Notes under the pieces: model-generated
Seen by the model: the letters and a program-made list of their open reading frames with translations, nothing else
What the model was told of the DNA's origin: nothing
Databases searched by the model: none
Source of the DNA: an uncultured Erysipelotrichaceae bacterium
GTDB taxonomy: Bacteria > Bacillota_I > Bacilli_A > RF39 > UBA660
Length of the DNA stretch: 64,000 nt
Direction of reading: 5' to 3'
NCBI GenBank assembly: GCA_902773675.1
Contig: CACYFN010000003.1
Span: 3,209 to 67,208, forward strand
Position numbers and translations under genes: made by a program
Part shown: positions 43,044-64,000 of the stretch, in pieces
How the letters are laid out: every line of letters starts with the position of its first letter
How positions within the stretch are numbered: position 1 is the first letter of the stretch

Positions 43044-44123
43044 ATGTTATACTTTATATGGATGGTGGTCTACGTGATAGATATAAATTTTAAAAAAACT
43101 TTATTAATGGTTTTGATTCCCTTTATATTTGTTACAGCAATTATACCATTTATTAAAAAAATAGCATTTCACATAGGAGCAATTGATATTCCAAATGAAA
43201 GAAAAGTCCATAAAAAACCAATGCCTAGATTAGGTGGACTAGGAATATATGCTGGATTTTTACTAGGATATATATTGTTCGGTGAGCACACCTATATGAT
43301 GAATTCAATTTTAATAGGAAGCTTTATTTTAATAATTACCGGTATGATAGATGATATAAAACCAATTAAAGCATATCATAAATTAATTGGTCAAATTTTA
43401 GCATGTTTAATTGTAGTTTTTTATGGAGAAGTACTTTTAAAAGATATTAGTTTTTTTGAATTATATATAGATTTTGGAGTTTTTTCTTATCCTATTACAA
43501 TACTTTTTATGTTAGGATGTATTAATTGTATGAATTTAATTGATGGTCTTGATGGACTTGCAGCAGGAATTTCCTCAATATTCTTTCTAACAATAGGAAT
43601 AATATCACTTTTTAAAACATCAGGTGGTCTTTCATTTGAATTATCATTTATATTAACATTAATAATGTTAGGATCAACTGGTGGATTTTTAGTGCACAAT
43701 TTTAATCCAGCTAAAATATTTATGGGAGATACTGGTTCCATGTTTTTAGGATTTATTATTTCAATAATAACATTACTTGGATTTAAAGCAACATTGATGT
43801 CATCGATAATAATACCACTATTTATTTTAGTAGTTCCTATTTTAGATACTTTATTTGCAATTATTAGAAGAAAATTGAAAGGTGAAAGTGTAATTGTTCC
43901 AGATAAAAGTCACATTCATCATCAATTACTAAGACGTAATTGTAGTGTGAAAAAAACAGTATTAATTATATATCTAATAACATTCTTATTTTCAACAGCA
44001 TCCGTAATATATGTACTTGTAGATAATGTAATTGGTTATATTATATATGGAACATTAATGGTATTTGTAATAATATTTGTTCTAACAACAGATATACTAT
44101 TTGAACATAAAAAAAATAATTGA
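43044..44123 (+). CDS. Polyprenyl-phosphate N-acetylhexosamine-1-phosphate transferase (WecA/TagO family, GT4 MraY-like)
   Basis: HKKPMPRLGGLGIY, NLIDGLDGLAAG and GDTGSMFLGF motifs. Confidence 0.8.
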   Translation: MLYFIWMVVYVIDINFKKTLLMVLIPFIFVTAIIPFIKKIAFHIGAIDIPNERKVHKKPMPRLGGLGIYAGFLLGYILFGEHTYMMNSILIGSFILIITGMIDDIKPIKAYHKLIGQILACLIVVFYGEVLLKDISFFELYIDFGVFSYPITILFMLGCINCMNLIDGLDGLAAGISSIFFLTIGIISLFKTSGGLSFELSFILTLIMLGSTGGFLVHNFNPAKIFMGDTGSMFLGFIISIITLLGFKATLMSSIIIPLFILVVPILDTLFAIIRRKLKGESVIVPDKSHIHHQLLRRNCSVKKTVLIIYLITFLFSTASVIYVLVDNVIGYIIYGTLMVFVIIFVLTTDILFEHKKNN

Positions 44124-44944
44124 AAGGATTTGAAAACATGATAAAAAATACTTTTCTAAATTTTAAACATTATTGGTTTTTAATGACCCAATTAATATCA
44201 AGAGATTTTAAAGTTAAATATAAACGAAGTGTATTAGGCGTTGTTTGGAGTCTATTAAATCCAATATTAATGATGTCAGTAATGGCAGTAGTTTTTTCTC
44301 AAATGTTTAGAGTTAGAGTGGAGGGAGCTAACTACTTAGTTTATTTAATGACAGGAATTATAATGTTTAACTATTTTAATGAAGCATCAACAAACGCTAT
44401 GACATCAGTAGTAGATAATTTTGGACTAATTAACAAAGTATATATTCCAAAATATATATTTCCAATTGCAAAATGCTTATTTATTGGAATAAATTTTTTA
44501 TTAACATTAATCCCATGGCTAGGAATAATATTACTTTCTTATGTGGGACTTGGTGAATATACATGTCACATAAATATAAATTATTTATTGCTACCATATG
44601 TTTTTTTATGTTTATTTCTTTTTACAGTTGGTATGGGATTATTTTTGTCTTGCGTTTCAGTTTTTTTAAGAGATGTAATTTACATATATGGAATAGTAAC
44701 AATGATTTGGAATTATATTACCCCTGTATTTTATAGTATTGAAATAATACCTGAAAAATTAATACCAATATTTAAATTTAATCCATTATATCAATATTTA
44801 AATGCAGCAAGAGAAATAGTATTATATTCAAAATGTCCATCGGTATATAATTTAATTGCTATAACATTATATTCATTATTTGCAGTAATAATTGGTGGAA
44901 TAATATTTAAAAAGAATCAAGATAAATTTGTATATTATGTTTAG
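44120..44944 (+). CDS. ABC-2 type polysaccharide/teichoic-acid exporter permease (Wzm/TagG-like)
   Basis: Six-TM ABC-2 permease directly upstream of the ATPase gene. Confidence 0.7.
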   Translation: MKGFENMIKNTFLNFKHYWFLMTQLISRDFKVKYKRSVLGVVWSLLNPILMMSVMAVVFSQMFRVRVEGANYLVYLMTGIIMFNYFNEASTNAMTSVVDNFGLINKVYIPKYIFPIAKCLFIGINFLLTLIPWLGIILLSYVGLGEYTCHININYLLLPYVFLCLFLFTVGMGLFLSCVSVFLRDVIYIYGIVTMIWNYITPVFYSIEIIPEKLIPIFKFNPLYQYLNAAREIVLYSKCPSVYNLIAITLYSLFAVIIGGIIFKKNQDKFVYYV

Positions 44945-44953
44945 GAGGTTAAA

Positions 44954-45694
44954 ATGATTGAATTAGAAGATGTCACAATGAAATTTAATTTAGGAATTGA
45001 AAAAAATTTTTCTATAAAACAAGCATTTGTAAATTTTTTTAATCCTAAACATAAAAAACAGAAAAAAGAATATTTTAATGCCTTAAAAAATATCAGTTTT
45101 AATGTAAAAAAAGGAGAGGTAGTTGGACTTATAGGTAGTAATGGAGCGGGTAAATCAACATTACTTAAAGTAGTAAGTGGCGTAATGAAACCAACACAAG
45201 GTAAAGTTACAGTACATGGAGCAATATCACCAATGATTGAACTTGGAGCAGGTTTTGATATGGAATTAACAGCCAGAGAAAACATTTATTTAAATGGATC
45301 AATTTTAGGATATTCAAAAAAGTTTATTGATGAAAAATTTAATGATATTGTTGAATTTTCCGAATTAAGAGATTTCTTAGATGTGCCAATAAAGAATTTT
45401 TCATCAGGTATGACTGCAAAACTTGCATTTTCAATTGCAACAGTAGTAGATCCAGAAATATTAATTGTAGATGAGATACTATCTGTTGGAGATATTAAAT
45501 TTCAAGAAAAAAGTAAAAACAAAATGTTAGAAATGATTAAAGGTGGAACAACAGTATTGTATGTTTCACATTCATTACAATCTATTAAAGAATTATGTGA
45601 TAAAGTAATTTGGATAGAACATGGAGTAATGATTAAAATGGGTGATGCTAAAAAAATATGTGAAGAATATTATGAACATCAAATGCAGAAGTAG
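44954..45694 (+). CDS. ABC exporter ATP-binding protein (Wzt/TagH-like)
   Basis: Walker A GSNGAGKSTLLK, signature FSSGMTAKLAFS, Walker B ILIVDEILSVGD. Confidence 0.85.
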   Translation: MIELEDVTMKFNLGIEKNFSIKQAFVNFFNPKHKKQKKEYFNALKNISFNVKKGEVVGLIGSNGAGKSTLLKVVSGVMKPTQGKVTVHGAISPMIELGAGFDMELTARENIYLNGSILGYSKKFIDEKFNDIVEFSELRDFLDVPIKNFSSGMTAKLAFSIATVVDPEILIVDEILSVGDIKFQEKSKNKMLEMIKGGTTVLYVSHSLQSIKELCDKVIWIEHGVMIKMGDAKKICEEYYEHQMQK

Positions 45695-45702
45695 GAGGAA
45701 AT

Positions 45703-47511
45703 ATGGAAAAATATATACATTATTGTTGGTTTGGTGGAAAACCACTTCCAAAACTAACTAAGAAATGCATTAAAAGCTGGAAAAAATTCTTACCAGATTT
45801 TGAAATAATAGAATGGAATGAATCTAATGTAAATTTGGAAGAATGCCCATTCATAAAAGAAGCATATCAACATAAAAAATGGGCATTTGTTGCAGATTAT
45901 GCTAGAACAGTTGCTCTTTATAACAAAGGCGGTATTTATTTTGATACAGATATGTTACTTAAAAAGCCAATTGATTTCTTATTTGAACATGAAACATTTT
46001 TAGGTATAGAAGATTCATTTATGGTAAATGCGGCAGTATGGGGAGCTAATAAACCAAAATCATATTTTTCAAAAAAAATGTTAGATTTTTATAAAGCTCA
46101 AAAACATTTTGATGTAAATAATATGTTTAAAGTTAGTATTCCAAGAATTATGACTTCACTACTAAATGAAGAAGGATTAGATCATACATCAAATGAAATA
46201 CAACATTTAAAACACAACATAACAATTTATCCAAGAGAGTATTTTTATCCACTATCATTTGATTTTAAAGATAATGTCTTTACTGATAATACTTGTATGA
46301 TTCATTATTTTGATGCCAGTTGGTTTAGTAAAAAAGAAAAATATAGAGTTAAATTAAACAGAAAAATTGGTGAAAAAAATGTAAATAGAATGATTGGAGT
46401 ATATAAGAAAATAAGACATCTAGGTGGAGCAATTATTAAAAAAACATTATATAAACCAGCTAAATACTTTAAATACACTTATTTAAATAAAGGAAAATAT
46501 AAAAATGATTTAAATAAATCAATTAATGCATTAAAAAATATAAATGGTGATTATATAGTAATGCATAATCCTGATTGGCTAGGAATAACAAGTGCTACTA
46601 TCGAATTATTTGATAATAACAGAGTACCTTGTGGTGAATTTTTAAGAAAAAGTGATATGAAAAAATTTGCAAGTGTAATACTAGAAAAAAATATTAAGCA
46701 AGTTATATTTAGTGCAATGTGTATTGGTTGGAAAGATTTAGCCTATTATCTAAAATCAAAAAATCCTAATATATTAATAAAAGTATTCTGGCATGGAAGT
46801 ATATCACAAGTTTCAGAACCATATGGTTGGGCAAGAAATATCGAATTAATAGATATGAGTAAAGATGGAACATTAACTACATTTGGGACTTGTAAAGAGT
46901 CATTAGTAAAATTCTATGAAAATTTAGGTATCAATACTAAATTTATAATGAATAATGTAACACTAAAAAATAAAATTGAACATAAAAATCCGAAAGAAGT
47001 AGTTATAGGACTTTATGCAGCAAAAAAAGATGATTGGAGAAAAAACCTTTTTGCTCAAATAGCTGCTGTATCACTAATAAAAAATGCCACAATCGATATA
47101 ATACCGATGGACTATGAAGCCGCTACATTTGCTTCCAATCTAGGATTAAAAGTAACAGGTATTGATAAAGCAATTCCAAGAGAACAATTACTAGAAAGAA
47201 TGAGTAAAAATACTATGAATTTATATGTTACTTTCTCAGAGTGTGCACCAATGCTACCAATCGAAAGCTTTGAAGTAGGAACAATCTGCTTAACTGGCAA
47301 TAATCATCATTACTTTAAAAATACAGAATTAGAAAAATATTTAGTTGTAGATAATGAAGAAAGTCCAGTTGAAATAGCTAACAAAATTGAATTATGCATA
47401 AAAAATCAAGAAAAAGTATTAAAACTATATAAAGAATGGAAAAAGAAAAATGATACTAACAGCACAAAAAGTGCTACAGATTTTATAAATGATGGAATGG
47501 GGGAAAAATAA
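45703..47511 (+). CDS. Glycosyltransferase, N-terminal GT32-like DXD-motif domain with a C-terminal extension
   Basis: HYCWFGGKPLP...KKWAFVADYARTVALYNKGGIYFDTDM, a Gly_transf_sug-type motif. Confidence 0.5.
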   Translation: MEKYIHYCWFGGKPLPKLTKKCIKSWKKFLPDFEIIEWNESNVNLEECPFIKEAYQHKKWAFVADYARTVALYNKGGIYFDTDMLLKKPIDFLFEHETFLGIEDSFMVNAAVWGANKPKSYFSKKMLDFYKAQKHFDVNNMFKVSIPRIMTSLLNEEGLDHTSNEIQHLKHNITIYPREYFYPLSFDFKDNVFTDNTCMIHYFDASWFSKKEKYRVKLNRKIGEKNVNRMIGVYKKIRHLGGAIIKKTLYKPAKYFKYTYLNKGKYKNDLNKSINALKNINGDYIVMHNPDWLGITSATIELFDNNRVPCGEFLRKSDMKKFASVILEKNIKQVIFSAMCIGWKDLAYYLKSKNPNILIKVFWHGSISQVSEPYGWARNIELIDMSKDGTLTTFGTCKESLVKFYENLGINTKFIMNNVTLKNKIEHKNPKEVVIGLYAAKKDDWRKNLFAQIAAVSLIKNATIDIIPMDYEAATFASNLGLKVTGIDKAIPREQLLERMSKNTMNLYVTFSECAPMLPIESFEVGTICLTGNNHHYFKNTELEKYLVVDNEESPVEIANKIELCIKNQEKVLKLYKEWKKKNDTNSTKSATDFINDGMGEK

Positions 47512-48386
47512 TGTTAGAAGAAATTAAACAGCATCAAAATGATAAATGCATATCATTAGTTCCACCATTTGATTTAAAATACTTTGAAGGAATAAATAAT
47601 ACATTAGGAAATGCCATAAAAATTGGCCATGTTGAAGTAAATGAAAAAATAATAAAAACAATTAATGAATCCAAAATAGAGAAAATATATTTATTTGGTA
47701 ATCATGATATTTATAGATACATCCTACCAAGACTAAAAAAGAAAATAGAAGTATGTTGGGTATTTAATGAATCATTTTCTAGTTTATCCAATGGTGGAGT
47801 TAGATACTATTTAAACACTATCTTTGAATATTATGAAAGAAATCTTATAAAATCAATAGGATGTACTAGTAAAGATAACAAAAAAATATTTGAAAATTCA
47901 AAATATAATTGTGAATATATAAATTTGCAAATCAAGAAAATAGAATCAAAATCAAATAAGAGTAATTCAATAGGAATTCTAAGTGATGACTATGATCCAA
48001 ATAATAACTTTTATAATCAATTAGCAGCTCTAACTTTTATTGATTATGATGTATGTAAATATAGATGCGTAATGGATGCAACAAATCATTTTCAAAAATA
48101 CTTTAACATAAAAAGTAAAATAACAGATAATATGGATGAAGTAATTAAAAATAATTTTGTTAATTTATACATTAATTTTACAAATACCAATAAAGAATTA
48201 ATCATGAGAAGTTTTAACTACGGAGTACCTGTAATTGTTGGTAATACAGATTTTTATGATAATAATAATTATTTAAAAGAAAATCTTGTAGTAAAAAGTG
48301 ATGATGATATTAATGAAATAGTAGAAAAAATAAACTTTGTAAAGAGAAACTATAAAAAGATAATGGAAGAGTATAATAATATCTAG
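47511..48386 (+). CDS. Hypothetical protein in the polysaccharide locus
   Basis: ORF-track ORF, translationally coupled to the preceding gene. Confidence 0.4.
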   Translation: MLEEIKQHQNDKCISLVPPFDLKYFEGINNTLGNAIKIGHVEVNEKIIKTINESKIEKIYLFGNHDIYRYILPRLKKKIEVCWVFNESFSSLSNGGVRYYLNTIFEYYERNLIKSIGCTSKDNKKIFENSKYNCEYINLQIKKIESKSNKSNSIGILSDDYDPNNNFYNQLAALTFIDYDVCKYRCVMDATNHFQKYFNIKSKITDNMDEVIKNNFVNLYINFTNTNKELIMRSFNYGVPVIVGNTDFYDNNNYLKENLVVKSDDDINEIVEKINFVKRNYKKIMEEYNNI

Positions 48387-48396
48387 GTGATTGCTT

Positions 48397-49617
48397 ATGA
48401 GATATGGACTTTTATATTATAAAAATACAGATAATATAGGTGATGATATTCAAAGTTATGCCCAAGAACAATTTTTACCAAGAATCGATTACATGATTGA
48501 TAGAGAGAATTTGGAACAATTTGTTCCAAATGAAAAAAAATACATATATACAATAATGAATGCTTGGTATATTCATGATAAATACAACTTTAATTTTTCA
48601 CCATATATTTATCCATTATTCATATCAATGTTTTTCAAAAACTTTCCCTATGAAGATGGAGTAACATATGGAACTGATTATTTAAATGAAAATGTTATAA
48701 CTGATTTAAAAAAGTATTCACCAGTAGGAGCAAGAGATTTACACACAAAAAAAATATTTGATAATTTAAATATTGAAAATTATTTTTCTGGTTGTTTAAC
48801 ATTAACTCTTGAAAAATTACCTAATATCAAAAAAGAAAAATATATTGTAGTAAATGGACTTAATGAAGAAGAAATAGAATATATAAAAAGTAAAACAAAA
48901 AAAGAAGTAAAAGTTGTAAAACAAGATGTCCCATATGGTTCCTTTTCCAATGAAACTTGGGAACAAAGAAAAGATAGAGTTGTAGACTTATTAAAATTAT
49001 ATCAAGGAGCACACATGGTTATTACAACGAAACTACATTGTTCACTTCCATGTTTAGCTCTTGAAACACCAGTATTACTATTATATGATAAATCATTTCC
49101 TGAAAACGAAGATAGAATAGGTACTTACTTAGAATATCTAAATCATATCGATAGAACAGAATTAAAATCATCAAATATTAATTTTAATAAACCATTAAAT
49201 AATCCAGAAAAGTATTTAGAATTAAGAAAATCACTTATAAAAAAATGTAAAGAATTTATAAATAATAATAAACAAATAGATATAAATGATTTACCTGATA
49301 TTGAACAATATAAATATTATATAAAACGATCATTTGAATCTAGAAAACCAATAATTAATCATTTAAAAGAATTATCAAATAAATATGTAGAAGAATGTAA
49401 AAAATCATCACAAATGTATGATGAATTAAATGAACTAAAATATCAAAATAATGATTTAAAAAATAAAATAGATAACTTAAAAGAAAATAATGAAAAGCTT
49501 AGTAAAGAAAAAGATGAAATAAATACTAAATACAATGATTTAAACGAAAAAATGTGTAGAATTGAGAATTCTAGGTCATATAAATTATATAAAAAAATAA
49601 AAAAAATATGTAAGTAA
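48397..49617 (+). CDS. Polysaccharide pyruvyl-transferase-like protein with a C-terminal coiled-coil
   Basis: The N-terminus YYKNTDNIGDDIQ resembles the PS_pyruv_trans NxGDD motif. C-terminal heptad-like NELKYQNNDLKNKIDNLKENNEKL. Confidence 0.4.
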   Translation: MRYGLLYYKNTDNIGDDIQSYAQEQFLPRIDYMIDRENLEQFVPNEKKYIYTIMNAWYIHDKYNFNFSPYIYPLFISMFFKNFPYEDGVTYGTDYLNENVITDLKKYSPVGARDLHTKKIFDNLNIENYFSGCLTLTLEKLPNIKKEKYIVVNGLNEEEIEYIKSKTKKEVKVVKQDVPYGSFSNETWEQRKDRVVDLLKLYQGAHMVITTKLHCSLPCLALETPVLLLYDKSFPENEDRIGTYLEYLNHIDRTELKSSNINFNKPLNNPEKYLELRKSLIKKCKEFINNNKQIDINDLPDIEQYKYYIKRSFESRKPIINHLKELSNKYVEECKKSSQMYDELNELKYQNNDLKNKIDNLKENNEKLSKEKDEINTKYNDLNEKMCRIENSRSYKLYKKIKKICK

Positions 49618-49641: not shown

Positions 49642-50778
49642 TTGAAAGAAAAATTATCTTGGATTACAGGATTAAAAGGGGTTGCAGCATTAGTAATATT
49701 AATTCATCATTTTGCTTTGTATTTTTATCCTGGTTTTATATATACTACAGCAGATAATATCAAAATGAAAGGTGGCTTAGAGCTAAAAATAGCCCAAACA
49801 CCATTGAATATTTTTAGTTGGGGTGGTGTAACAGGAGTATGTATCTTTTTTACAATAAGTGGGTTTTTAATCGCATATAACTATTATAAAAAAGAAAAAA
49901 AATATGATGCATCATATATGATAAAGAGATATTTAAAACTAATGATACCGATATTAATTTCATCCACAATAATATTCTTAATTGTAAAATCAAAAATTTT
50001 TAGAACAGATTCATTGTTAGAACTATACAAGAATAGTGGGTTAAATAATAGTTATACTTATTATAATGAAAACATTTTTACACTAATATGGAATTCATTA
50101 TTTACATTATTTAAAACTGCATCTTGCCCAATTAATCCACCAATGTGGACAATGAAAAATGAATTAATATATTCAATATTAAGTGGATTATTAATAAATG
50201 TTACCGGTAAAAGTAAATATAGATTTATTATTTATTTCATAATTTTTTTGCTCTTCATTAATACATATTATATATGTTTCATATTAGGTATTGTTCTTTG
50301 TGATGTTTGGGTGAATAAACAAAATATTATCAATTATTTAAATAGATTTGATATAAAAATAATTATATTATTATTTGGATTATTATTATTTTCATGTACT
50401 TATGCTAATCAATTTACTATATATTATTCAGTCATAAATAATTTATTTGAAGAAATTGATTATATAGTATTCTATCATTCAATTGGTTCAGCATTAATTT
50501 TACTATTCTTTTTATTAACAATTAATGCAAGAAAATTATTTTCAAAAAAATTATTCTTGTTCTTAGGTGAACAGTCACTTTTTATATATTTATTCCATTG
50601 GGTAATCATTAATACATTTTCTATGTTTATTGTTGTCAAATTAAATAGATATTTAAAATATTATCAATCATGTCTTATATCACTTGTATTATCATTTATA
50701 GTAATAATTCTTATGTCAAAGTATTTTGGTAAATATATTACAGCAATAACCAGTTGGGTAGTAAAGAAGATAAAATAA
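49642..50778 (+). CDS. Acyltransferase family 3 membrane protein (O-acyltransferase, OatA-like)
   Basis: N-terminal WITGLKGVAALVILIHHF and a roughly 10-TM topology typical of Acyl_transf_3. TTG start. Confidence 0.6.
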   Translation: MKEKLSWITGLKGVAALVILIHHFALYFYPGFIYTTADNIKMKGGLELKIAQTPLNIFSWGGVTGVCIFFTISGFLIAYNYYKKEKKYDASYMIKRYLKLMIPILISSTIIFLIVKSKIFRTDSLLELYKNSGLNNSYTYYNENIFTLIWNSLFTLFKTASCPINPPMWTMKNELIYSILSGLLINVTGKSKYRFIIYFIIFLLFINTYYICFILGIVLCDVWVNKQNIINYLNRFDIKIIILLFGLLLFSCTYANQFTIYYSVINNLFEEIDYIVFYHSIGSALILLFFLLTINARKLFSKKLFLFLGEQSLFIYLFHWVIINTFSMFIVVKLNRYLKYYQSCLISLVLSFIVIILMSKYFGKYITAITSWVVKKIK

Positions 50779-55209: not shown

Positions 55210-55559
55210 GTATTAATCTAATTATAGTATCAATACTTTTTAGCATATTTATTATCATTACCATTCTTTTTTTACTAAGAAAGAAAAAAATAAATATAAA
55301 GTATTCTCTTATATGGATTATATTATTTACCATCTTATTAATTGCAACTATTATACCAGGATTTTTAGTATGGATTACACATTTACTGGGATTTAAGACA
55401 GCTTCAAATATGGTAATCTCAATTATTCTAGCAGTATTAGTAGTGATATCAATTGTTTTAACAATGATAGTATCAAAACAAGATAAAAAAATTAGATTGT
55501 TAATACAAGAAATTAGTATTCTAAAAAAAACATTTGGTGATTATAATGAAAAAAAATAG
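55206..55559 (+). CDS. Small membrane protein (DUF2304-like GT2 partner)
   Basis: Two to three TM segments, translationally coupled downstream of the GT2 gene. Confidence 0.4.
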   Translation: MSINLIIVSILFSIFIIITILFLLRKKKINIKYSLIWIILFTILLIATIIPGFLVWITHLLGFKTASNMVISIILAVLVVISIVLTMIVSKQDKKIRLLIQEISILKKTFGDYNEKK

Positions 55560-56985
55560 TGTAAAAAAAAATGTATTATATAATCTTATCTATCAAGTAC
55601 TAACTGTTCTTCTTCCTTTAATAACAACACCATATTTATCAAGAAAATTAGGAGCTGAGCCTATAGGAATATATGGCTTTACCTTATCAATTGTAACTTA
55701 TTTTGTATTATTTGGATCACTTGGTACTGCAATGTATGGACAAAGAGAAATAGCAAAAAGACAAAATTCTAAGAAAAAATATTCTGTAACTTTTTGGGAA
55801 GTAACAATTATAAGAATTCTTGCAATGTTTATTTCAATGTTAATATTCTTTATATTTTTCTGCAGAAATGGAAGTTATATTTTATATTACAAAATATTCT
55901 TAATATACATGATTGCCTATGCATTAAATATTTCTTGGTTTTTTCAAGGAATGGAAAAATTTGATAAAATTGTAATAAGGAATATTATTGTAAAAATACT
56001 GAGTATCATTTTAATATTTACATTAGTAAAAAGCCCAAATGATTTATGGATATATATTTTAATATTTGTTGGATCAGAATTATTAGGAAATCTTTCTTTA
56101 TGGTTATATTTACCAAAATATTTAACAAAAATTGAAAGAAAAAGTATTAAATTAAAAAAACATTTAATTCCTGTGTTATTACTATTTTTACCTCAAGTTG
56201 CAACACAGATTTATACTGTTTTAGATAAAACAATGGTTGGAATAATAACAAATAATATGGATGAAGTAGGCTTTTACGAACAAGCTCAAAACATTGCCAA
56301 AGCTGCTTTAGTTATTATGGCATCAGTTCAAACAGTAATGAACTCAAGAGTTGCAAATGCCAATGAACAAGGAGATATAAATACAATAAAAAAATGTCTA
56401 AAAAAATCATTTGATTTTGTTTGGATGATTGGAATTCCTATAATGTTTGGTCTAATAATAGTATCTGGTAATTTAGTACCATGGTATTATGGTAAAAATT
56501 TTGAACCAGTAAAATTTATCTTAATTACAATATCGCCAATAATTTTAGCAATAGGATTAAGTGGTATAACTGGAATTGTTTATATGATACATACTGGCCA
56601 ACAAAATAATTTTACTAGATCTGTTATTTTTGGAGCAATTGTTAATGTAATATTTAATATTATATTAATAAATATATTCGGCACTATTGGAGCAGCAATT
56701 TCATCTGTAATAGCAGAAATATCTATTCTTATATTTCAATTAAGATATATTAAAGAGGTTTATAAGATAATTGATATTTTCAAAGTTTCAATTAAACCAT
56801 TAGTTGCTGGTTTATTAATGGTTATGATTTTACTTCCAATATCATTTATTTTAAAGTCTTCAATAATAAATACTTCAGTTTTAGTAATTTCAGGTATGTT
56901 AATATATAGCTTAGTTCTGTATATATTAAAGTATGATTTATTACATGATATTATCCATTCAGGAATAAAGATAATAAAAAGATAA
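55546..56985 (+). CDS. wzx: Polysaccharide flippase, MOP/Wzx family
   Basis: About 12-14 TM helices. N-terminus LIYQVLTVLLPLITTPYLSRKLGAEPIGIYGF typical of Wzx. ATG at 55546, lying among A8-A9 tracts. Confidence 0.7.
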   Translation: MKKNSVKKNVLYNLIYQVLTVLLPLITTPYLSRKLGAEPIGIYGFTLSIVTYFVLFGSLGTAMYGQREIAKRQNSKKKYSVTFWEVTIIRILAMFISMLIFFIFFCRNGSYILYYKIFLIYMIAYALNISWFFQGMEKFDKIVIRNIIVKILSIILIFTLVKSPNDLWIYILIFVGSELLGNLSLWLYLPKYLTKIERKSIKLKKHLIPVLLLFLPQVATQIYTVLDKTMVGIITNNMDEVGFYEQAQNIAKAALVIMASVQTVMNSRVANANEQGDINTIKKCLKKSFDFVWMIGIPIMFGLIIVSGNLVPWYYGKNFEPVKFILITISPIILAIGLSGITGIVYMIHTGQQNNFTRSVIFGAIVNVIFNIILINIFGTIGAAISSVIAEISILIFQLRYIKEVYKIIDIFKVSIKPLVAGLLMVMILLPISFILKSSIINTSVLVISGMLIYSLVLYILKYDLLHDIIHSGIKIIKR

Positions 56986-57015: not shown

Positions 57016-58158
57016 ATGGAAAAAAAAGAAATTATTATATTCAGTGAATATTATTTACCAAAGTTAGGTGGTGTTGAAAGATATACCAACAAATTAATAG
57101 AAGAATTAAAAGAAAAGTATAATATAACAATAGTAACTACAATACTTGATGGTGTAGAAGATTATGATCAACAAGAAAATGTAAAAATATTTAGAGTTCC
57201 TGTTTACAATATCTTTAAAAGCAGATATGCATTTATAAAGAAAAATAAGAAATTCAAGAAAATAATGAGTGAAGTTGGAAAGACACATTATAATTTCTTA
57301 ATATGTCAAACAAGATTTTTTCCTATGACATCATTTGGAGCTAAATATGCAAAGAAAAACCATATACCAATGATTGTAATAGAACATGGAAGTTCACATT
57401 TTTCAATTAATAATCGAATTCTAGATTTTTTTGGAAAGATATATGAACACCTTATTACAAATAGATTAAAGAAAAAATGTTCTAATTACTATGGTGTTTC
57501 CCAAAGATGTGTCTCATGGCTAAAACATTTTAAGATTGACGCATTAGGCGTACTATATAATTCAATTGATCACAAAGATTATAATAAATTTAAAGATAAA
57601 TATTATTTTAAAAATAAAGAAAAAGAAATAAATATTTGTTATGCCGGAAGATTAATAAAAGAAAAAGGTGTATATGAACTATGTGATGCTTTTAATAAAT
57701 TAACAAAAGGATATAAAAATATAAAATTAAATATAGCCGGCGATGGACCAATTCTTAATGATTTAAAATTAAAATATTCAAATAACAAGAAAATAGTATT
57801 TTTAGGAAAATTAGATTTTGATAATGTAATGGGATTATATAATTCATGTGATATATTTGTATATCCATCAATGTATCCAGAAGGATTACCAACATCTATA
57901 CTTGAAGCAGGACTTATGAAATGTGCAGTTGTAGCCACTGATAGAGGGGGAACAGTAGAAGTAATTACTCACAAAAAAGATGGCCTTATCTGCGAGGAAA
58001 ATGTACAATCTATACATGATAATATAAAATTATTACTAGATAATCATAAATTATTAGAAGAATATAAAGAAAAATTACATCAAAGAATAATTGAAAATTT
58101 TACTTGGAATGTTACAGCTAAAAAATTATCAAATATAATAGAAAAAGAAAGTAGGTAG
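57016..58158 (+). CDS. Family 4 glycosyltransferase
   Basis: EGLPTSILEAGLMKCAVVATDRGG (E-x7-E region). Confidence 0.8.
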   Translation: MEKKEIIIFSEYYLPKLGGVERYTNKLIEELKEKYNITIVTTILDGVEDYDQQENVKIFRVPVYNIFKSRYAFIKKNKKFKKIMSEVGKTHYNFLICQTRFFPMTSFGAKYAKKNHIPMIVIEHGSSHFSINNRILDFFGKIYEHLITNRLKKKCSNYYGVSQRCVSWLKHFKIDALGVLYNSIDHKDYNKFKDKYYFKNKEKEINICYAGRLIKEKGVYELCDAFNKLTKGYKNIKLNIAGDGPILNDLKLKYSNNKKIVFLGKLDFDNVMGLYNSCDIFVYPSMYPEGLPTSILEAGLMKCAVVATDRGGTVEVITHKKDGLICEENVQSIHDNIKLLLDNHKLLEEYKEKLHQRIIENFTWNVTAKKLSNIIEKESR

Positions 58159-58162
58159 TAAT

Positions 58163-58924
58163 ATGAAAATATATATTATATCAGGTAATAAAACACCAAT
58201 TATAGATAGAAAAGAATATGAAATATTGCAAGTCGGAGCTGCCATAAATAAAGATGTCAATATCAGCAAATTAAAAGATAATACAAAAGATAATATATCT
58301 GAAAAAAATAGAAATTATTGTGAACTAACAGGATTATACTGGATATGGAAAAATTCAAAAGAAAAAATAATCGGATTAGTTCATTATAGAAGATTCTTTT
58401 ATAAAAAAATTATGTTCAAAAATAAAGAAGTAGTTACAGAAGACGATGTAAAAGATATATTGAAAGATTATGATATTATACTTCCAACAATGGGACATAC
58501 ATACATGACTGTATACAAACAATATGAGAAATATCACGATATAAATGATTTATTATTATGTGGAAAAATTATCAAAAAAAAATATCCAGATTACTATCCA
58601 GAGTTTGAAAAATTGTTAAAACAAAAAAAGTATTATCCATTTAATATGTTTATTGCAAAAAAAGAATTAATAGACGAATATTGTGAATGGTTGTTTGATA
58701 TTTTATTTGAATCAGAGAAAACAATAAATAAAACATTAGAAACAAAAGATAAGTATAATAAAAGGGTTTATGGATTTCTTAGTGAAAGATTGTTTAATGT
58801 ATGGATTAAAACAAAAAAATTAAAGATAAAAGAATTGCCAGTCTATAATGTAGAAAAAAACAAAGCAAAAGAAATACTAATAGAAACAACAAAACATGCA
58901 TTAAATGTTGTTAGAAAAAAGTAA
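58163..58924 (+). CDS. DUF4422 exopolysaccharide-biosynthesis protein
   Basis: YCELTGLYWIWKNSKEKIIGLVHYRRFF segment typical of DUF4422. Confidence 0.5.
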   Translation: MKIYIISGNKTPIIDRKEYEILQVGAAINKDVNISKLKDNTKDNISEKNRNYCELTGLYWIWKNSKEKIIGLVHYRRFFYKKIMFKNKEVVTEDDVKDILKDYDIILPTMGHTYMTVYKQYEKYHDINDLLLCGKIIKKKYPDYYPEFEKLLKQKKYYPFNMFIAKKELIDEYCEWLFDILFESEKTINKTLETKDKYNKRVYGFLSERLFNVWIKTKKLKIKELPVYNVEKNKAKEILIETTKHALNVVRKK

Positions 58925-58934
58925 TGGAGGTTTT

Positions 58935-60038
58935 ATGAAATATGATTATTTAGTAGTTGGAGCAGGTTTATTTGGTGCAACTTTTGCTAATCTTGCTCAT
59001 AAAAATGGTAAAAAGGTTTTGGTTATTGATAGAAGAAATCATATAGCTGGAAATGTTTATACGGAAAATATTGAAGGAATTAATGTACATAAATATGGTG
59101 CACATATTTTTCATACAGATTATAAAGATGTATGGGATTATGTAAATTCATTTGTTGAATTTAACAGATATACTAATAGTCCTATTGCTAGAATAGGTAA
59201 TGAAGTATACAATTTACCTTTTAATATGAATACATTTTCAAAGATGTGGAATGATGTATTTACTCCGGAAGACGCATTAAGACATATTAATGAAGAAAAA
59301 AAAGAAATAGATAAAGATCCAACTAACTTAGAAGAACAAGCTATTTCATTAGTTGGTAGAACAATTTATGAAAAATTAATTAAAGGCTATACAGAAAAGC
59401 AATGGAATAGAGATTGTAAAGATTTACCAGCATTTATTATAAAAAGATTACCTGTAAGATTAATTTATGACAATAATTATTTTAATGATAGATATCAAGG
59501 TATACCTATAGGTGGTTATACTAAATTAGTTGAAAAGATGTTAGAAGGAATTGAAGTAAGACTTAATACTGATTATTTTTCTAATATAGATGAATTTAAA
59601 AATATTGCTAACAAGGTAGTTTATACTGGCCCACTTGACGAATATTTTAATTATTCATTAGGTGAATTAGACTGGAGATCACTAAAATTTGATACAAAAA
59701 TATTAAATGAAGAAAATCATCAAGGAAATGCTGTTGTTAATTATACAGGTCATGAGGTAGAATATACAAGAGTAATAGAACATAAACATTTTGAAAATAA
59801 TCAAAGTGATAAAACAGTTGTTACTTATGAATATCCTGCTGACTATGAAAAAGGTATGGAAAAATATTATACAATTAATGATGATAAAAATAATAAATTG
59901 GCTAGTGAGTATAGAGATTTAGCAAGTAAAGAAGAAAATGTTATATTTGGTGGAAGACTTGCTGAATATAAATATTATGATATGGATGATGTTATTAAAG
60001 CTGCATTTGCTACGATAAATAAAGAATTAAAAATATGA
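58935..60038 (+). CDS. glf: UDP-galactopyranose mutase
   Basis: FAD-binding YDYLVVGAGLFGATFA, and HKYGAHIFHT. About 367 aa. Confidence 0.85.
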   Translation: MKYDYLVVGAGLFGATFANLAHKNGKKVLVIDRRNHIAGNVYTENIEGINVHKYGAHIFHTDYKDVWDYVNSFVEFNRYTNSPIARIGNEVYNLPFNMNTFSKMWNDVFTPEDALRHINEEKKEIDKDPTNLEEQAISLVGRTIYEKLIKGYTEKQWNRDCKDLPAFIIKRLPVRLIYDNNYFNDRYQGIPIGGYTKLVEKMLEGIEVRLNTDYFSNIDEFKNIANKVVYTGPLDEYFNYSLGELDWRSLKFDTKILNEENHQGNAVVNYTGHEVEYTRVIEHKHFENNQSDKTVVTYEYPADYEKGMEKYYTINDDKNNKLASEYRDLASKEENVIFGGRLAEYKYYDMDDVIKAAFATINKELKI

Positions 60039-60127: not shown

Positions 60128-61348
60128 ATGATAAAATGGGTAGTAGAAAAAATTAAAAGACTAGCTAATAAAAACTACATAAAAATAACAGATGTTTTAA
60201 CAGAAGGTAAGAAATTAATTATCAAATATGATGTTAATGGTGATGTATGCCAATTCTTTGAAAAAGATAAATCTATGGAAATAGAATATGATTTTAAACT
60301 AGATAAAATTTCTAAAAGTATTTTAGTTATTCCGTTTTTATCCCTTTTTTTACCAGTAGCATGGATTACCAAAAGTAATATAATTCTTGATGAAATTGAT
60401 GAATCATTTTTAAATAATATAGATAAAATAAGAAATGCATTTAATAATATGTATGAAGAAAATTTATTTAAGAAAATTAAAATTAAATCAAAAAAAATAG
60501 TTAAAAATGAAATAAAACCAATAAGAAGTTCAATGTTCTTTTCTGGTGGTGTAGATTCTCTTGATACATTATGTACAAATTTTGATAAAAATCCTTTATT
60601 AATAATGATATGGGGATCTGATATTTGGCTTGAAGATATAAAAGGCTGGAATACTGCTAAACAAAATATGGATAAAATATCTAAAAAATTAAAGAAAAAT
60701 AAAACATACATTAAATCAAATTTTAGAAAAACTATAAATGAATTAAAACTAAATGAAGTATATGAAGAACAATTAGGAGATAATTGGTGGCATGGTGTAG
60801 AACATGGAATGGCACTTCTAGGACATATTGCTCCATTAGTTATTAAATATAAAATAGCAGTTCATTATATACCAGGAACCTTTAGTAATAATGATAAAGA
60901 TGTTAAATGTGCCTCATATCCAACAATAGATGAAAATTTTAAAGTAGCAAATTGTAGTGTTATTCATGATGGATTTAATTATACAAGGTTAGATAAAGTA
61001 AAAAATATAGTTTCATTTTCTAAAGATAATAAGACAGGTATTAAATTTAGAACTTGTTATAAAGAACGAGATGACAAAATGAATTGCTGTGATTGTGAAA
61101 AATGCTTTAGAACAATTATGGAACTTGTTAGTATTGGTGAAAATCCTGAAAAATATGGATATGAATATAATAAAGAAGTAATAAATAAAATAAAGTCACA
61201 TTTAAAAAATAATAAGTTCGAACATGAAATATTAAGTAATATGTGGTTCGATATTCAACAAGAGATTAATAAAAATAAATATTTTAAAGTTTATGATTTA
61301 TCTTGGATAAATGATTTTGATTTTAAAAGTAAAAATAGTAAAGAATAG
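60128..61348 (+). CDS. PP-loop ATP-pyrophosphatase-like protein (N-acetyl-sugar amidotransferase WbuX/WbpG-like)
   Basis: SGGVDS PP-loop (SMFFSGGVDSLDTL) and a C-terminal CCDCEKCFRT cysteine cluster. Confidence 0.45.
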   Translation: MIKWVVEKIKRLANKNYIKITDVLTEGKKLIIKYDVNGDVCQFFEKDKSMEIEYDFKLDKISKSILVIPFLSLFLPVAWITKSNIILDEIDESFLNNIDKIRNAFNNMYEENLFKKIKIKSKKIVKNEIKPIRSSMFFSGGVDSLDTLCTNFDKNPLLIMIWGSDIWLEDIKGWNTAKQNMDKISKKLKKNKTYIKSNFRKTINELKLNEVYEEQLGDNWWHGVEHGMALLGHIAPLVIKYKIAVHYIPGTFSNNDKDVKCASYPTIDENFKVANCSVIHDGFNYTRLDKVKNIVSFSKDNKTGIKFRTCYKERDDKMNCCDCEKCFRTIMELVSIGENPEKYGYEYNKEVINKIKSHLKNNKFEHEILSNMWFDIQQEINKNKYFKVYDLSWINDFDFKSKNSKE

Positions 61349-61409: not shown

Positions 61410-62534
61410 ATGAAAAAAATTACTATTTTAGCACTTCATCTTAATTATGGTGGTATAGAAAGATTTATTACTAATTTAGCAAATAGTTTAAGTAATGATT
61501 ATGATGTAGAAATTATATCTACATATAAAATGACAGATAAACCATTTTTTAAACTAAATAATAATATTAAAGTTAAATATTTAATAACTAATCTAAAACC
61601 TAATAAAGAAGAAATAAATACATATTTAAAAAAATTTAACATCATTAAATTAACAAAAGAGCTATTTAAAAGTATGAAAATACTATACTTAAAAAAACAC
61701 TTAATGATTGACTTTATAAAAAAATGTAATAGTGAAATTGTAATAAGTACAAGAGATATCCATAACACATGGCTAGGAAAATATGGAAGAAAAGAAATAT
61801 TAAAGATAGGCAGCGAACATAATGATAGTAATTCATTAAAATATATAAAAAAAATATCCAAAACAGCTCATAAATTAGACTACTTTGTAGTAGTATCCAA
61901 AAAAATGAAAGATGATTATACTAAATATTTAAAAGTTCCAGTAATATATATTCCAAATAGTATAGAAAAAATACCAACTAGTTACTCAAAATTAGATACA
62001 AATAATATTATATCAGTTGGTAGATTAGAAAACGTTAAAGGATTTGAAGATTTAATAGAAGTATTTGAAATAGTTATTTCTAAAAATAAAAATATTAAAT
62101 TAAATATAGTAGGATCTGGTAGTCAAAAAGAAATACTTGAAGAAAAAATTAATAAATTAAATTTAAATAATAATGTTAAATTAGTAGGATATAAAACCGA
62201 AGAAGAATTATCTAATTTATATAATGAATCAAGTATATTTGTAATGACATCACATAGTGAATCATTTGGCCTTGTATTATTAGAAGCAATGAGTCATAAA
62301 TTACCTTGTATAGCATTTGATAGTGCAAATGGAGCTTGCGAGATTATAGAAGATAATATTAACGGATATTTAATAAAAAATAGAAATAAAGAAGAAATGG
62401 CAAATAAAATATTAGAATTAATTAATAATAAAGAAAAAAGAGAACAAATAGGTACAAATGCTTTAAATAATTCTAAAAGGTATTTATCAGAAAATATAAA
62501 AAAGAAGTGGGTTGATATTTTTGAAAACAAATAA
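61410..62534 (+). CDS. Family 4 glycosyltransferase
   Basis: SHSESFGLVLLEAMSHKLPCIAFDSANGACEII. Confidence 0.8.
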   Translation: MKKITILALHLNYGGIERFITNLANSLSNDYDVEIISTYKMTDKPFFKLNNNIKVKYLITNLKPNKEEINTYLKKFNIIKLTKELFKSMKILYLKKHLMIDFIKKCNSEIVISTRDIHNTWLGKYGRKEILKIGSEHNDSNSLKYIKKISKTAHKLDYFVVVSKKMKDDYTKYLKVPVIYIPNSIEKIPTSYSKLDTNNIISVGRLENVKGFEDLIEVFEIVISKNKNIKLNIVGSGSQKEILEEKINKLNLNNNVKLVGYKTEEELSNLYNESSIFVMTSHSESFGLVLLEAMSHKLPCIAFDSANGACEIIEDNINGYLIKNRNKEEMANKILELINNKEKREQIGTNALNNSKRYLSENIKKKWVDIFENK

Positions 62535-62994
62535 TATAATATTTATATCAAGCACAGGTGGACATTTAAATGAATTATTACAATTAAAAGAATTATTTAA
62601 AAAATATAATAGCTATATAATTACCGAAAAAACAAAATCTAATAATAAACTAAAAGATAAATATGATAATGTATTCTATTTAGTATATGGAACTAGAAAA
62701 AATCTATTATTTTATCCATTTATATTTATATTTAATATTATTAAATCATTTATCTACTTTTTTAAAATCAAACCAAAAGTTATTGTAACAACAGGAACAC
62801 ATACAGCAGTACCAATGTGTTATATAGCTAAATTATTTAGAAAAAAAGTAATTTATATAGAAACATTTGCAAACCGTTATAGTAAAACGATGGCAGGAAA
62901 AATGATTTATCCAATTGCTGATACATTTATTGTACAATGGGAAGAAATGTTAAAATTATATCCTAAAGCTAAATATTTTGGAAGCATATACTAA
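62512..62994 (+). CDS. Alg14-like glycosyltransferase subunit (Cps14F/PssD type, membrane-anchoring partner)
   Basis: IIFISSTGGHLNELLQLKELF N-terminus. Followed by the Alg13-like partner. Confidence 0.65.
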   Translation: MIFLKTNNIIFISSTGGHLNELLQLKELFKKYNSYIITEKTKSNNKLKDKYDNVFYLVYGTRKNLLFYPFIFIFNIIKSFIYFFKIKPKVIVTTGTHTAVPMCYIAKLFRKKVIYIETFANRYSKTMAGKMIYPIADTFIVQWEEMLKLYPKAKYFGSIY

Positions 62995-63006
62995 TGGAGG
63001 ATTATA

Positions 63007-63492
63007 ATGATTTTAGTAACACTAGGAACACAAGATAAAAAATTCTATCGTCTTATTAAAGAAATAGATAAATTAATAGAACAAAAGAAAATAAAAGAAG
63101 AAGTAATAGTTCAAGCAGGAAGTTCTGCAAACTATAAAAGTAGCAAAATGAAAATATTTAATCTTATTCCAATGGAAGAATTTGATGAGTTGTTAAAAAG
63201 ATGTGACTTACTAATTACTCATGGAGGAGTAGGAACGATATTAAATGGTTTAAAAAATAACAAAAAAGTTATAGCTGTACCGAGATTAAAAAAATATAAG
63301 GAACACGTAAACGATCATCAAGTACAAATTGTAAGCAATTTTAGTGATGAAGGATATATATTAAAAGTTGAAAATATTAGTACATTGTATGATGTAATAA
63401 AATACTCAAAAGTATTTAAACCAAAAAAATATAAAGAAAATAATAAAGAATTTGTTGAAAAATTATCAAAGGAAATAGATAATTATTTATAA
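63007..63492 (+). CDS. Alg13-like glycosyltransferase catalytic subunit (GT28 C-terminal domain; Cps14G/PssE type)
   Basis: MILVTLGTQ...LLITHGGVGTILNGLKNNKKVIAVPR. Confidence 0.65.
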   Translation: MILVTLGTQDKKFYRLIKEIDKLIEQKKIKEEVIVQAGSSANYKSSKMKIFNLIPMEEFDELLKRCDLLITHGGVGTILNGLKNNKKVIAVPRLKKYKEHVNDHQVQIVSNFSDEGYILKVENISTLYDVIKYSKVFKPKKYKENNKEFVEKLSKEIDNYL

Positions 63493-63501
63493 GGAGGTAT
63501 A

Positions 63502-64000
63502 TATGAAAATATTAGTTACAGGAGGAACTGGTTACATAGGAAGTCACACTTGTGTAGAATTATTAAATGAGGGATATGAAGTAGTAATTGTTGATAATTT
63601 TAGTAATTCAAAACCAGAAGTTACAGAAAAAATTAAAAAAATAACAAATAAAGATATTAAATTTTATAAAGGTGACGTATGTTCAAGAGAATTAATAGAA
63701 AAAATATTTAATGAAAATGAAATAGATGGAGTAATTCATTTTGCAGGTTATAAAGCAGTTGGTGAGTCTGTAAAAAAACCATTAATGTACTATCAAAATA
63801 ATTTAGAATCAACAATAAACCTATTAGATGTTATGCAAAATCATAACTGTAAGACTTTTATTTTTTCATCTAGTGCAACAGTATATGGTATTCAAGATAC
63901 ACCAAAATATGTTGAAACAATGGAAAGACGAAAGCAATCAAATCCATATGGTAGAACAAAATCAATGATTGAACAAATACTTGAGGATTTATATACATCA
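63502..64000 (+). CDS. galE: UDP-glucose 4-epimerase, 3' end truncated by the window edge
   Basis: MKILVTGGTGYIGSHTCVEL Rossmann motif, and YGRTKSMIEQIL (Y-x3-K). The frame is open to the window end. Confidence 0.85.

Follow-up and report, generated by a model that had tools for sequence, protein, structure and literature searches.

Why should a single bacterial gene cluster carry both an ATP-binding cassette (ABC) exporter of the Wzm/Wzt type and a Wzx-type flippase? The question is raised by a surface-glycan locus that begins at position 43044 of a 64,000-nucleotide stretch of DNA from an uncultured Erysipelotrichaceae bacterium (GenBank assembly GCA_902773675.1, contig CACYFN010000003.1; the whole stretch is called the window below). 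A first-pass annotation of the window had offered two answers, namely two polymers (for example a wall teichoic-acid-like polymer and a Wzx/Wzy-type heteropolysaccharide) or a hybrid pathway. The combination is only seemingly paradoxical, as it has a known explanation: a Wzx flippase can serve the decoration of an ABC-exported chain, which is carried out on the outside of the membrane by glycosyltransferases (GTs) of the GT-C fold. The systems for which this logic is understood so far, those of streptococci, lactococci and enterococci, have rhamnan backbones.

Our analysis favours the hybrid option, on the grounds of a single terminator-free array, interleaved conserved and variable genes, and a set of GT2, DUF2304, Wzx and GT-C genes. 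We consider it probable that the locus encodes one composite, peptidoglycan-associated wall polysaccharide, in which a conserved ABC-exported backbone carries a variable side chain flipped by Wzx. It is best filed as a rhamnose-free addition to the known composite Gram-positive wall polysaccharide loci, and suggests that the same logic is used in abundant uncultured rumen and gut Firmicutes, with different backbone machinery and with swappable galactofuranose (Galf) or heptose cassettes.

Extent of the locus

The open reading frame (ORF) listing contains 20 genes in 43044-64000, all of which lie on the forward strand in an operon-like array (the strand applies to all locus genes described below). 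The intergenic gaps do not exceed 104 nt and several gene pairs overlap. A scan of 44001-64000 detected no terminator-like sites, compared with 2.1 expected from shuffled sequences. The description of more than 20 kb of co-directional surface-glycopolymer genes in the first-pass annotation is thus borne out. A locus made of two separate operons split by terminators, which had been named there as the opposite case, is ruled out by the absence of such sites and by the interleaving of conserved and variable genes.

The left border at 43044 holds: the upstream genes have housekeeping functions, and the nearest one is divergent. The right border at 64000 had to be revised. Several public rumen metagenome contigs match the window with 100% identity wherever they overlap it (six stretches, L001-L006, from at least five assemblies; L001-L004 were recognised by sequence, L005 and L006 by having the same protein products), and on these contigs the array runs about 2.8 kb farther. 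Positions 10497-13777 of L005 correspond to window positions 63503 to ~66783 and add the rest of galE, a 324-aa GT2 of the PgfS/GtrB type and a 433-aa polysaccharide deacetylase. The whole locus comprises 22 genes in ~23.7 kb, 20 of which are in the window. Nearly every component that had been listed for it was matched by a Pfam or NCBIfam model; besides the right end, the number of GT4 genes and an overlooked DUF2304 gene had to be corrected.

For comparison, related loci were collected by a scan with the 467-aa GT-C family described below, using one genome per species. This resulted in 25 loci, to which the window proteins were mapped by tblastn and phmmer. Two rumen metagenome loci, L033 (84% nucleotide identity) and L035, are the closest relatives of the window locus.

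A GT2 enzyme, its DUF2304 partner and the flippase

The reason why a Wzx flippase sits in an ABC-type locus can be found in the two genes in front of it, a GT2 gene of the polyprenyl-phosphate type and a DUF2304 gene. The earlier inventory had listed the small GT2 without its polyprenyl-phosphate nature and had omitted the DUF2304 gene. The 238-aa GT2 (54493-55209; PF00535, 74.6 bits) has its best NCBIfam match in PpgS (5e-25), followed by AglJ and ArnC, all below the cutoffs, and 7 of its 7 sequence relatives in the PDB are archaeal DPMS, GtrB or ArnC. It has no integral transmembrane (TM) helices of its own, just a C-terminal amphipathic/hydrophobic segment, and shows 40-91% identity to its counterparts in 23 related loci. 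Judged by these matches, it is a predicted polyprenyl-monophosphate sugar synthase of the GacI/WpsA/PpgS type.

The DUF2304 protein (55206-55559; PF10066, 76.3 bits) has 117 aa and three TM helices and belongs to the family of GacJ, WpsB and Rv3632. Its gene overlaps the stop of the GT2 gene by 4 nt and the start of wzx by 14 nt, and it directly follows the GT2 gene in 21 related loci. By analogy, it is the predicted activating partner of the 238-aa GT2. In Streptococcus pyogenes, the DUF2304 protein GacJ and the GT2 GacI form a complex, in which GacJ boosts synthesis of undecaprenyl-phosphate-linked N-acetylglucosamine (GlcNAc-P-Und); the Wzx-family protein GacK is needed for the side chain, and the GT-C enzyme GacL puts GlcNAc on the ABC-exported polyrhamnose (bioRxiv 10.1101/180810). 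PpgS of mycobacteria is also stimulated by a DUF2304 protein, Rv3632 (bioRxiv 10.1101/180810).

The third gene encodes a Wzx-family flippase of 479 aa with 12 TM helices (55546-56985; PF01943, 106.8 bits; PF13440, 48.5 bits). According to the gene call on an identical public contig, it starts at ATG 55546 and not at TTG 55534. Its best PDB relative is the "Teichoic acid subunit flippase" 9xzn (E 1.3e-20). With the enzymes of the following section, all parts of the GacI/J/K/L type are present: a GT2 without TM helices, an adjacent DUF2304 protein, a Wzx-family flippase and a GT-C protein with an extracytoplasmic acidic residue.

Two large membrane proteins with a GT-C fold

Two large polytopic proteins, of 726 aa (50796-52976) and 467 aa (52985-54388), had been suggested as candidates for Wzy polymerases. 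Pfam and NCBIfam gave none or one weak match for them, and PDB profile searches gave no real match. AlphaFold models, built for one of the two with an alignment of 51 homologues and for the other with 31, were confident (pLDDT 88.7 and 91.2), and the top structural matches of both were GT-C glycosyltransferases only. The 726-aa protein, for which Foldseek ranked PglB, DPY19 and AglB first, consists of an N-terminal extension of ~6 TM helices, the GT-C core and a C-terminal soluble alpha/beta domain. The motif D207-E208-Y209 is invariant in its family and lies in a predicted outward loop after the extension. In the 467-aa family, Asp34 in the loop after TM1 is invariant. This loop should face outward, because it contains no Lys or Arg whereas the N-terminal tail contains four. 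A GT-C fold with outward acidic motifs is the hallmark of enzymes that use polyprenyl-phosphate sugars on the outer face of the membrane, and the suggestion of Wzy polymerases is thus not supported.

The 467-aa enzyme is the conserved partner of the GT2/DUF2304 pair. Two loci and many database proteins show it fused to the GT2; other fusions of this family involve a GT32-type domain, a DUF2142 membrane domain or HAD domains. These fusions tie a backbone-type GT, a synthase of undecaprenyl-phosphate (Und-P) sugars and a GT-C enzyme into one process. The family (homologues P0266-P0410) has 6275 representatives at E <= 1e-3 and 3246 at E <= 1e-10, but no Pfam model of its own; its distant members match DUF6020. 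A fold and a likely role can thus be assigned to two unannotated membrane-protein families, one of them very widespread.

Initiation, export and a putative backbone synthase

The left arm begins with a polyprenyl-phosphate GlcNAc-1-phosphate transferase of the WecA/TagO type (43044-44123; PF00953, 126 bits). Its best NCBIfam match is ECA_wecA (8.8e-41, under the equivalog cutoff), and the public gene call takes an internal start that yields 349 aa. Among the relatives, wecA adjoins wzm in L033 and L035 alone, the two closest ones. The exporter consists of a Wzm-type ABC-2 permease (44120-44944; PF01061, 67.8 bits; 59-95% identity across the related loci) and a Wzt/TagH-type ATPase of 246 aa (44954-45694; PF00005; 70-94% identity), which lacks a C-terminal carbohydrate-binding module. 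The permease matches the NCBIfam model of a galactan exporter permease best, far under its cutoff, and the ATPase matches galactan Wzt (2.3e-61) and TagH (4.4e-57), both below the cutoffs. The first-pass annotation had proposed to check whether the pair might be unrelated to glycan export; by its profiles it is a glycan exporter.

Next to wzt lies the gene of a 602-aa two-domain GT (45703-47511), with an N-terminal GT32-type domain that contains a DXD motif (PF04488, 59.9 bits; PF05704, 36.2 bits) and a GT-B-like C-terminal half (weak PF00534). It belongs to the conserved core of ~20 loci, which points to this protein as the putative backbone synthase. In the related loci it is always directly followed by the gene of a 291-aa protein (47511-48386), which is without Pfam or NCBIfam match and is 29% identical to residues 391-576 of the 602-aa protein (BLASTP, E 1e-13). 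This paralogue of the C-terminal half is presumably a conserved partner of the larger enzyme. Three GT4 genes had been counted in the locus originally. Two of them are clear (see below), and the supposed third corresponds to the weak GT-B half of the 602-aa protein and to its 291-aa paralogue.

The left arm also contains two modifying enzymes. One is pyruvyl-transferase-like (48391-49617; PS_pyruv_trans, PF04230, 46 bits), with a C-terminal coiled coil that gives weak coiled-coil-type matches at residues 300-400, and is shared only with L033 and L035. The other is an acyltransferase-3 membrane O-acyltransferase (49642-50778; PF01757, 79 bits), whose gene is a clade-specific insert.

Exchange of the right arm in related loci

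The right arm begins with wzx, followed by a GT4 glycosyltransferase designated GT4a (57016-58158; PF00534, 115.5 bits; PF13439), a DUF4422 protein (58163-58924; PF14393, 257.7 bits) and, immediately after the latter, UDP-galactopyranose mutase, Glf (58935-60038; TIGR00031, 416.7 bits, cutoff 303.75; PF03275, 277.7 bits). DUF4422 is the Galf-transferase domain (GT111) of WbbM (PMC12269835), and the protein is accordingly listed here as a GT111-type galactofuranosyltransferase. The earlier assignment of glf is confirmed by the match above cutoff.

The 25 related loci come from uncultured gut and rumen metagenome-assembled genomes labelled Bacilli, Erysipelotrichaceae, "Tenericutes", Clostridia and Muribaculaceae (three), and from a Vescimonas coprocola record. 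About 20 species-level loci share a recurrent core in the order wzm, wzt, GT32 fusion, 291-aa paralogue, an insert, 467-aa GT-C, GT2 and DUF2304, very often followed by GT4a, which directly follows DUF2304 in many distant loci. The genes for the pyruvyl-transferase-like protein, the acyltransferase, the 726-aa GT-C, Wzx, DUF4422/Glf, the 406-aa protein described below, GT4b and Alg14/13 occur sporadically. Close homologues of wzx were found in only 2 of the 25 distant loci; several of these loci encode divergent downstream proteins of 400-510 aa with 10-12 TM helices and weak Polysacc_synt matches (Wzx-like). The slot of the second GT-C can hold a DUF2142 protein instead. The core is also found at 40-80% identity in distant taxa, namely in L019 (Vescimonas coprocola) and in L009, L031 and L032 (Muribaculaceae labels), which suggests horizontal transfer or binning and labelling errors.

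The comparison of the closest relatives was more informative. L033 has the same gene order as the window. L035 keeps everything from wecA through DUF2304 at 74-95% amino acid identity, including Wzm and Wzt (93-95%) and GT2 and DUF2304 (80-92%). Its wzx slot is occupied by a membrane protein of 418 aa that matches Polysacc_synt only weakly and is not detectably similar to the Wzx of the window, and GT4a is missing. From this slot on (12498-19176), L035 has, besides that protein, the genes of an ADP-heptose pathway (two of the SIS or GmhA-like type and one each for an HldE-like kinase/adenylyltransferase and a GmhB-like phosphatase), together with a GT9 heptosyltransferase and a further GT4. 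The first-pass annotation had called for a strain comparison to look for serotype-like variability, and this was what we found: as judged from gene content, the right arm, including Wzx, behaves as a serotype-like side-chain cassette, of a Galf type in the window and of a heptose type in L035. Heptose is uncommon in wall glycans of the Gram-positive type.

The swap bears on the nature of the exported chain. An ABC-exported galactan, like Klebsiella O2a D-galactan I or mycobacterial galactan, would be built by Glf and a Galf transferase. Glf and a GT111 are present in the window, and the galactan Wzm and Wzt models are the best matches of the exporter, far below the cutoffs. However, L035 keeps Wzm and Wzt, while neither glf nor DUF4422 was found in the 6.7 kb of right arm on its contig, so that Galf is likely a side-chain sugar and not part of the ABC-exported chain. 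The candidate of a galactan as the exported backbone is thereby weakened.

It also bears on what the flippase carries. In a strictly group-A-streptococcus-like system, Wzx would play the role of GacK and flip only the Und-P-monosaccharide made by GT2/DUF2304, a GT-C enzyme would add single sugars, and the other GTs (GT4a, GT111, GT4b and Alg14/13) would be cytoplasmic enzymes for the ABC-exported chain or for its linkage unit. The contiguous and overlapping arrangement of the GT2, DUF2304, Wzx and GT-C genes, which resembles gacI-J-K-L, fits this scheme, and the locus has no export device besides Wzx and the ABC exporter. However, in L035 the flippase is replaced together with the sugar-nucleotide/GT cassette while GT2 and DUF2304 are kept, and there would be little reason for a flippase of a conserved Und-P-monosaccharide alone to change along with the cassette. 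The retention of the exporter without Glf and GT111 also makes Galf unlikely in the exported backbone. We thus regard a GacK-like monosaccharide flippase as quite improbable. A flippase that swaps with the cassette, against a constant background of the GT2, both GT-C enzymes, exporter and putative backbone synthase, favours a reading of the lactococcal type. In lactococci, the GlcNAc-P-C55 made by WpsA and WpsB is elongated by cytoplasmic GTs and flipped by the Wzx-type WpsG, and GT-C enzymes then join the product on the outside to an ABC-exported, TagO-primed rhamnan (PMC10821137). The general scheme of such extracytoplasmic decoration has been reviewed (PMC8035078).

Further genes of the right arm and the question of a second glycan

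Behind glf lies the gene of a 406-aa protein of an unannotated family (60128-61348), for which Pfam and NCBIfam gave no significant match. Among 49 aligned homologues, S139, G140, G141 and D143 of an FSGGxDS motif and the cysteines C310, C320, C323 and C326 (C-x9-C-x2-C-x2-C) are conserved. The two motifs show a weak alignment to QueC (PDB 2pg3, E 0.03), and 21 of the 49 members have weak PF06508 (QueC) matches. The PP-loop assignment made previously is plausible from the SGGxDS motif and the QueC-like Cys cluster, although no family model is significant. Going by these motifs, the protein is probably an ATP-dependent sugar-modifying enzyme. The family has 110 database clusters. Fusions of some homologues to PS_pyruv_trans domains hint at an ATP-dependent modification of glycans that is as yet undescribed.

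The window ends with the second GT4 gene, GT4b (61410-62534; PF00534, 157.5 bits), with the Alg14-like membrane-anchoring half (62512-62994; PssD/Cps14F; PF08660, 77.6 bits; NCBIfam PssD, 181 bits, cutoff 110) and the Alg13-like catalytic half (63007-63492; PssE/Cps14G; PF04101, 69.9 bits; NCBIfam PssE, 143.9 bits, cutoff 120) of a split GT, and with the first 166 residues of GalE (63503-64000; TIGR01179, 3.2e-62). The Alg14/Alg13 pair had been recognised correctly, as both matches exceed the cutoffs. The full-length GalE on L005 also scores above cutoff (TIGR01179, 427.5 bits). The 324-aa GT2 that follows, which ends in two TM helices, matches PgfS (1.2e-103) and ArnC (3.4e-56) along its entire length; by these features it is a second predicted Und-P-sugar synthase. 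With two synthases of this type and two GT-C enzymes, the locus would fit two steps of decoration. The 433-aa deacetylase (PF01522) is membrane-anchored. Directly after this last gene of the locus, beside the variable arm, L005 encodes an ISL3-family transposase (14581-15882), which may matter for cassette exchange; ribosomal genes are also found downstream.

Several of these proteins could be taken to indicate two independent glycans, an ABC-exported wall polymer and a WecA-primed Galf oligosaccharide on undecaprenyl diphosphate (Und-PP) that is flipped by Wzx and moved en bloc by the 726-aa GT-C to another acceptor, for example lipoteichoic acid, a lipid, the S-layer or a different surface protein. 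Alg13/14 and Cps14F/G classically act on lipid-diphosphate-linked sugars, so the presence of enzymes of this type would fit, as would the resemblance of the 324-aa GT2 to PgfS, which belongs to a streptococcal protein-glycosylation system. The best solved relative of Wzx is a flippase for Und-PP-linked teichoic acid units, and the 726-aa protein has, in addition to its Foldseek ranking, a C-terminal soluble domain that is oligosaccharyltransferase-like. However, the 726-aa gene belongs to the conserved left arm, where the backbone genes lie before it and the GT-C/GT2/DUF2304 triad behind it, and is retained at 74% identity in L035 despite the different Wzx cassette. Conserved and variable genes are interleaved in one array, the wzx and DUF2304 genes overlap, and the locus contains neither a gene for an acceptor protein nor a second initiating transferase. 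We thus consider two independent glycans unlikely, though worth keeping in mind.

A proposed model for a composite wall polysaccharide

The gene content, folds, conserved outward Asp motifs, fusions, conserved synteny and cassette swap described above can be joined into a scheme for one composite polysaccharide, in which we infer the step at which each enzyme acts, the sugar that it handles and the roles of the two GT-C proteins. WecA would make Und-PP-GlcNAc, on which the GT32/GT-B fusion enzyme and its 291-aa paralogue would polymerise the backbone in the cytoplasm for export by Wzm/Wzt. In parallel, the GT2, held at the membrane by DUF2304, would form a polyprenyl-monophosphate sugar, which GT4a, GT111 with Glf, GT4b, Alg14/13 and GalE of the right arm probably extend to a Galf-containing oligosaccharide. 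The cassette-specific Wzx would flip the lipid-linked side-chain unit, with an oligosaccharide rather than a monosaccharide as the presumed cargo and Und-P rather than Und-PP as the presumed carrier. On the outside, the two GT-C enzymes, with their outward active sites, would move lipid-linked sugars to the exported backbone and possibly also polymerise them. The PgfS/GtrB-type synthase could supply a further monosaccharide decoration, and the acyltransferase-3, the pyruvyl-transferase-like protein, the QueC-like PP-loop enzyme and the deacetylase may introduce non-sugar modifications. A gene for a class A penicillin-binding protein in the same window (23827-25788) indicates that the organism makes peptidoglycan and has a wall.

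Several observations weigh against this scheme. No LytR-CpsA-Psr (LCP) ligase was seen in the locus, so that attachment to peptidoglycan is an assumption. The family matches of GT2, WecA, Wzm and Wzt all fall under the NCBIfam equivalog cutoffs, and the evidence for the role of the 602-aa protein as backbone synthase is its conservation only. With a teichoic-acid subunit flippase for Und-PP-linked units as the nearest solved relative of Wzx, an Und-PP-linked, WecA-primed substrate is equally compatible with the data. Most loci that contain the GT-C/GT2/DUF2304 triad are without a close wzx homologue, and the triad does thus not strictly need this Wzx. The contig of L035 ends within its right arm, of which it covers 6.7 kb. 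Finally, the related loci were viewed within 10 kb on either side of the GT-C gene.

More tentatively, the locus may represent a class of rhamnose-free composite wall polysaccharides in uncultured rumen and gut Bacilli and Clostridia. The two Pfam-less GT-C families, one of which has more than 6000 representatives, might then act as extracytoplasmic ligase and polymerase, the slot after DUF2304 might be a junction for cassette recombination, and the QueC-like enzyme might carry out a new ATP-dependent modification, e.g. amidation, of a pyruvylated or acidic sugar. We offer this as a possibility that is appreciably less secure than the composite polysaccharide itself. Variable surface glycans of this kind are likely to be phage receptors and determinants of host interaction.

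Comparison with known systems

Among the 22 locus proteins, no significant assignment to Rml or rhamnosyltransferase families was obtained with Pfam and NCBIfam; the sole match to a rhamnosyltransferase model is weak (6.5e-07) and falls on the 238-aa GT2. As all parts of the scheme are present and rhamnose genes are absent, the locus appears to work like the streptococcal and lactococcal systems without being a rhamnan locus.

At the level of protein families, there is a close likeness to the cwps loci of Lactococcus lactis and L. cremoris, where a rhamnan and a polysaccharide pellicle are joined by "dual-chain assembly" (WpsA/WpsB, WpsC-F, WpsG, WpsH/I/J; PMC10821137). Common to both are a TagO/WecA-primed, ABC-exported backbone, a GT2 with a small membrane activator, cytoplasmic GTs, a Wzx-type flippase, two GT-C enzymes that act outside, and the combination of conserved and strain-variable parts in one locus; Galf also occurs in the variable chain of some lactococcal strains (PMC10821137). 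In contrast to cwps, the window locus has no genes for dTDP-rhamnose or rhamnosyltransferases, its conserved synthase is a GT32/GT-B fusion with a paralogue, its GT-C proteins come from Pfam-less families, and it carries the additional pyruvyl-transferase-like, acyltransferase-3 and QueC-like PP-loop genes.

The gac cluster of S. pyogenes (exporter GacD/E; GacI/J/K/L) likewise combines, at the level of families, GT2, DUF2304, Wzx and GT-C with an ABC exporter (bioRxiv 10.1101/180810; PMC8035078). However, group A streptococci add a single GlcNAc to polyrhamnose, whereas the flippase of the window precedes and co-varies with a multi-gene cassette of GTs and sugar-nucleotide enzymes, and the window locus has two GT-C enzymes, two Und-P-sugar synthases and no rhamnan genes.

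In mycobacteria, the polyprenyl-phosphate-GalNAc (N-acetylgalactosamine) synthase PpgS and its DUF2304 activator Rv3632 feed a GT-C enzyme that decorates arabinogalactan. The similarity includes the best match of the window GT2 to PpgS with a DUF2304 gene downstream, a probably Galf-containing wall polymer, and the galactan Wzm/Wzt as best exporter matches, which are sub-threshold. The scores are far below the cutoffs (88 versus 370 bits for PpgS, 207 versus 400 for Wzt), and, unlike in mycobacteria, Glf and the Galf transferase belong to the variable arm that is lost in the exporter-keeping L035, so that the exported chain is probably not a galactan.

The enterococcal epa and the bipartite Streptococcus thermophilus rgp loci also combine a conserved backbone region with a variable decoration region, whose product is made separately and then joined to an ABC-exported backbone (PMC7188991, PMC9746298, PMC8035078). 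Rhamnans form the backbones there, and the decorations of EPA are teichoic acids, whereas the window locus is without genes for polyol-phosphate or rhamnose. It also interleaves conserved and variable genes and is not strictly bipartite.

Teichoic acid, capsule and the poly-A runs

The two-polymer option of the first-pass annotation would correspond to a classical wall teichoic acid (TagO/TagGH) next to a Wzx/Wzy capsule, with a flippase that is phase-variable through slippage in A8/A9 runs. TagO-like and TagH-like matches and a Wzx are indeed present. However, TagO-like and TagGH-like parts were the only ones found: TagB, TagF, TagD, PF04464-type and cytidylyltransferase families are absent from the locus according to Pfam and NCBIfam, as are Wzy, polysaccharide copolymerases (PCP/Wzz/CpsC/CpsD) and a second initiating phosphoglycosyltransferase, and neither TarIJ, CpsB nor a CpsE-type transferase was found in it. 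All polytopic locus proteins are accounted for by WecA, Wzm, acyltransferase-3, the two GT-C enzymes, DUF2304 and Wzx, none of which is Wzy-like or O-antigen-ligase-like; the former Wzy candidates are the GT-C proteins.

The runs themselves are real. Two A8 runs (55523-55530 and 55549-55556) and one A9 run (55563-55571) on the forward strand span the DUF2304 stop and codons 2-9 of wzx, which starts at the ATG given above. Three runs of at least eight A within 49 nt are mildly unusual (P ~0.02 under uniform placement). Such runs are common, with 47 on the forward strand of the window, and several locus genes start with A7-A8. The runs encode the Lys-rich terminus ...KKTFGDYNEKK of DUF2304 and the conserved MKKNSVKKN of Wzx; distant Wzx homologues have similar residues with interrupted runs. 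The runs showed no variation in length in those four of the identical contigs that cover this site (L001, L002, L005 and L006), and L033 has substitutions only, with the frame kept. The runs are thus ordinary Lys codons of a genome with ~24% GC in the window, and slippage or phase variation of wzx, as proposed before, finds no support. Taken together with the missing teichoic acid and capsule genes, this makes the combination of the two classical polymers very improbable indeed.

Other features of the window

Just upstream of the locus, a small ORF (41942-42310) has a weak prepilin N-terminal methylation motif, and a divergent gene on the reverse strand (42327-42929) encodes a Lys/Glu-rich membrane protein of 200 aa that matches YukC weakly. 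Scans of the complete window for tRNA genes and Rfam families gave no match. Farther upstream, a region of 1.1 kb (22092-23216) is without long ORFs; it contains a divergent pair of small XRE-type helix-turn-helix ORFs (22631-22864 on the reverse strand and 22964-23173 on the forward strand) and an A13 run at 22348-22360.

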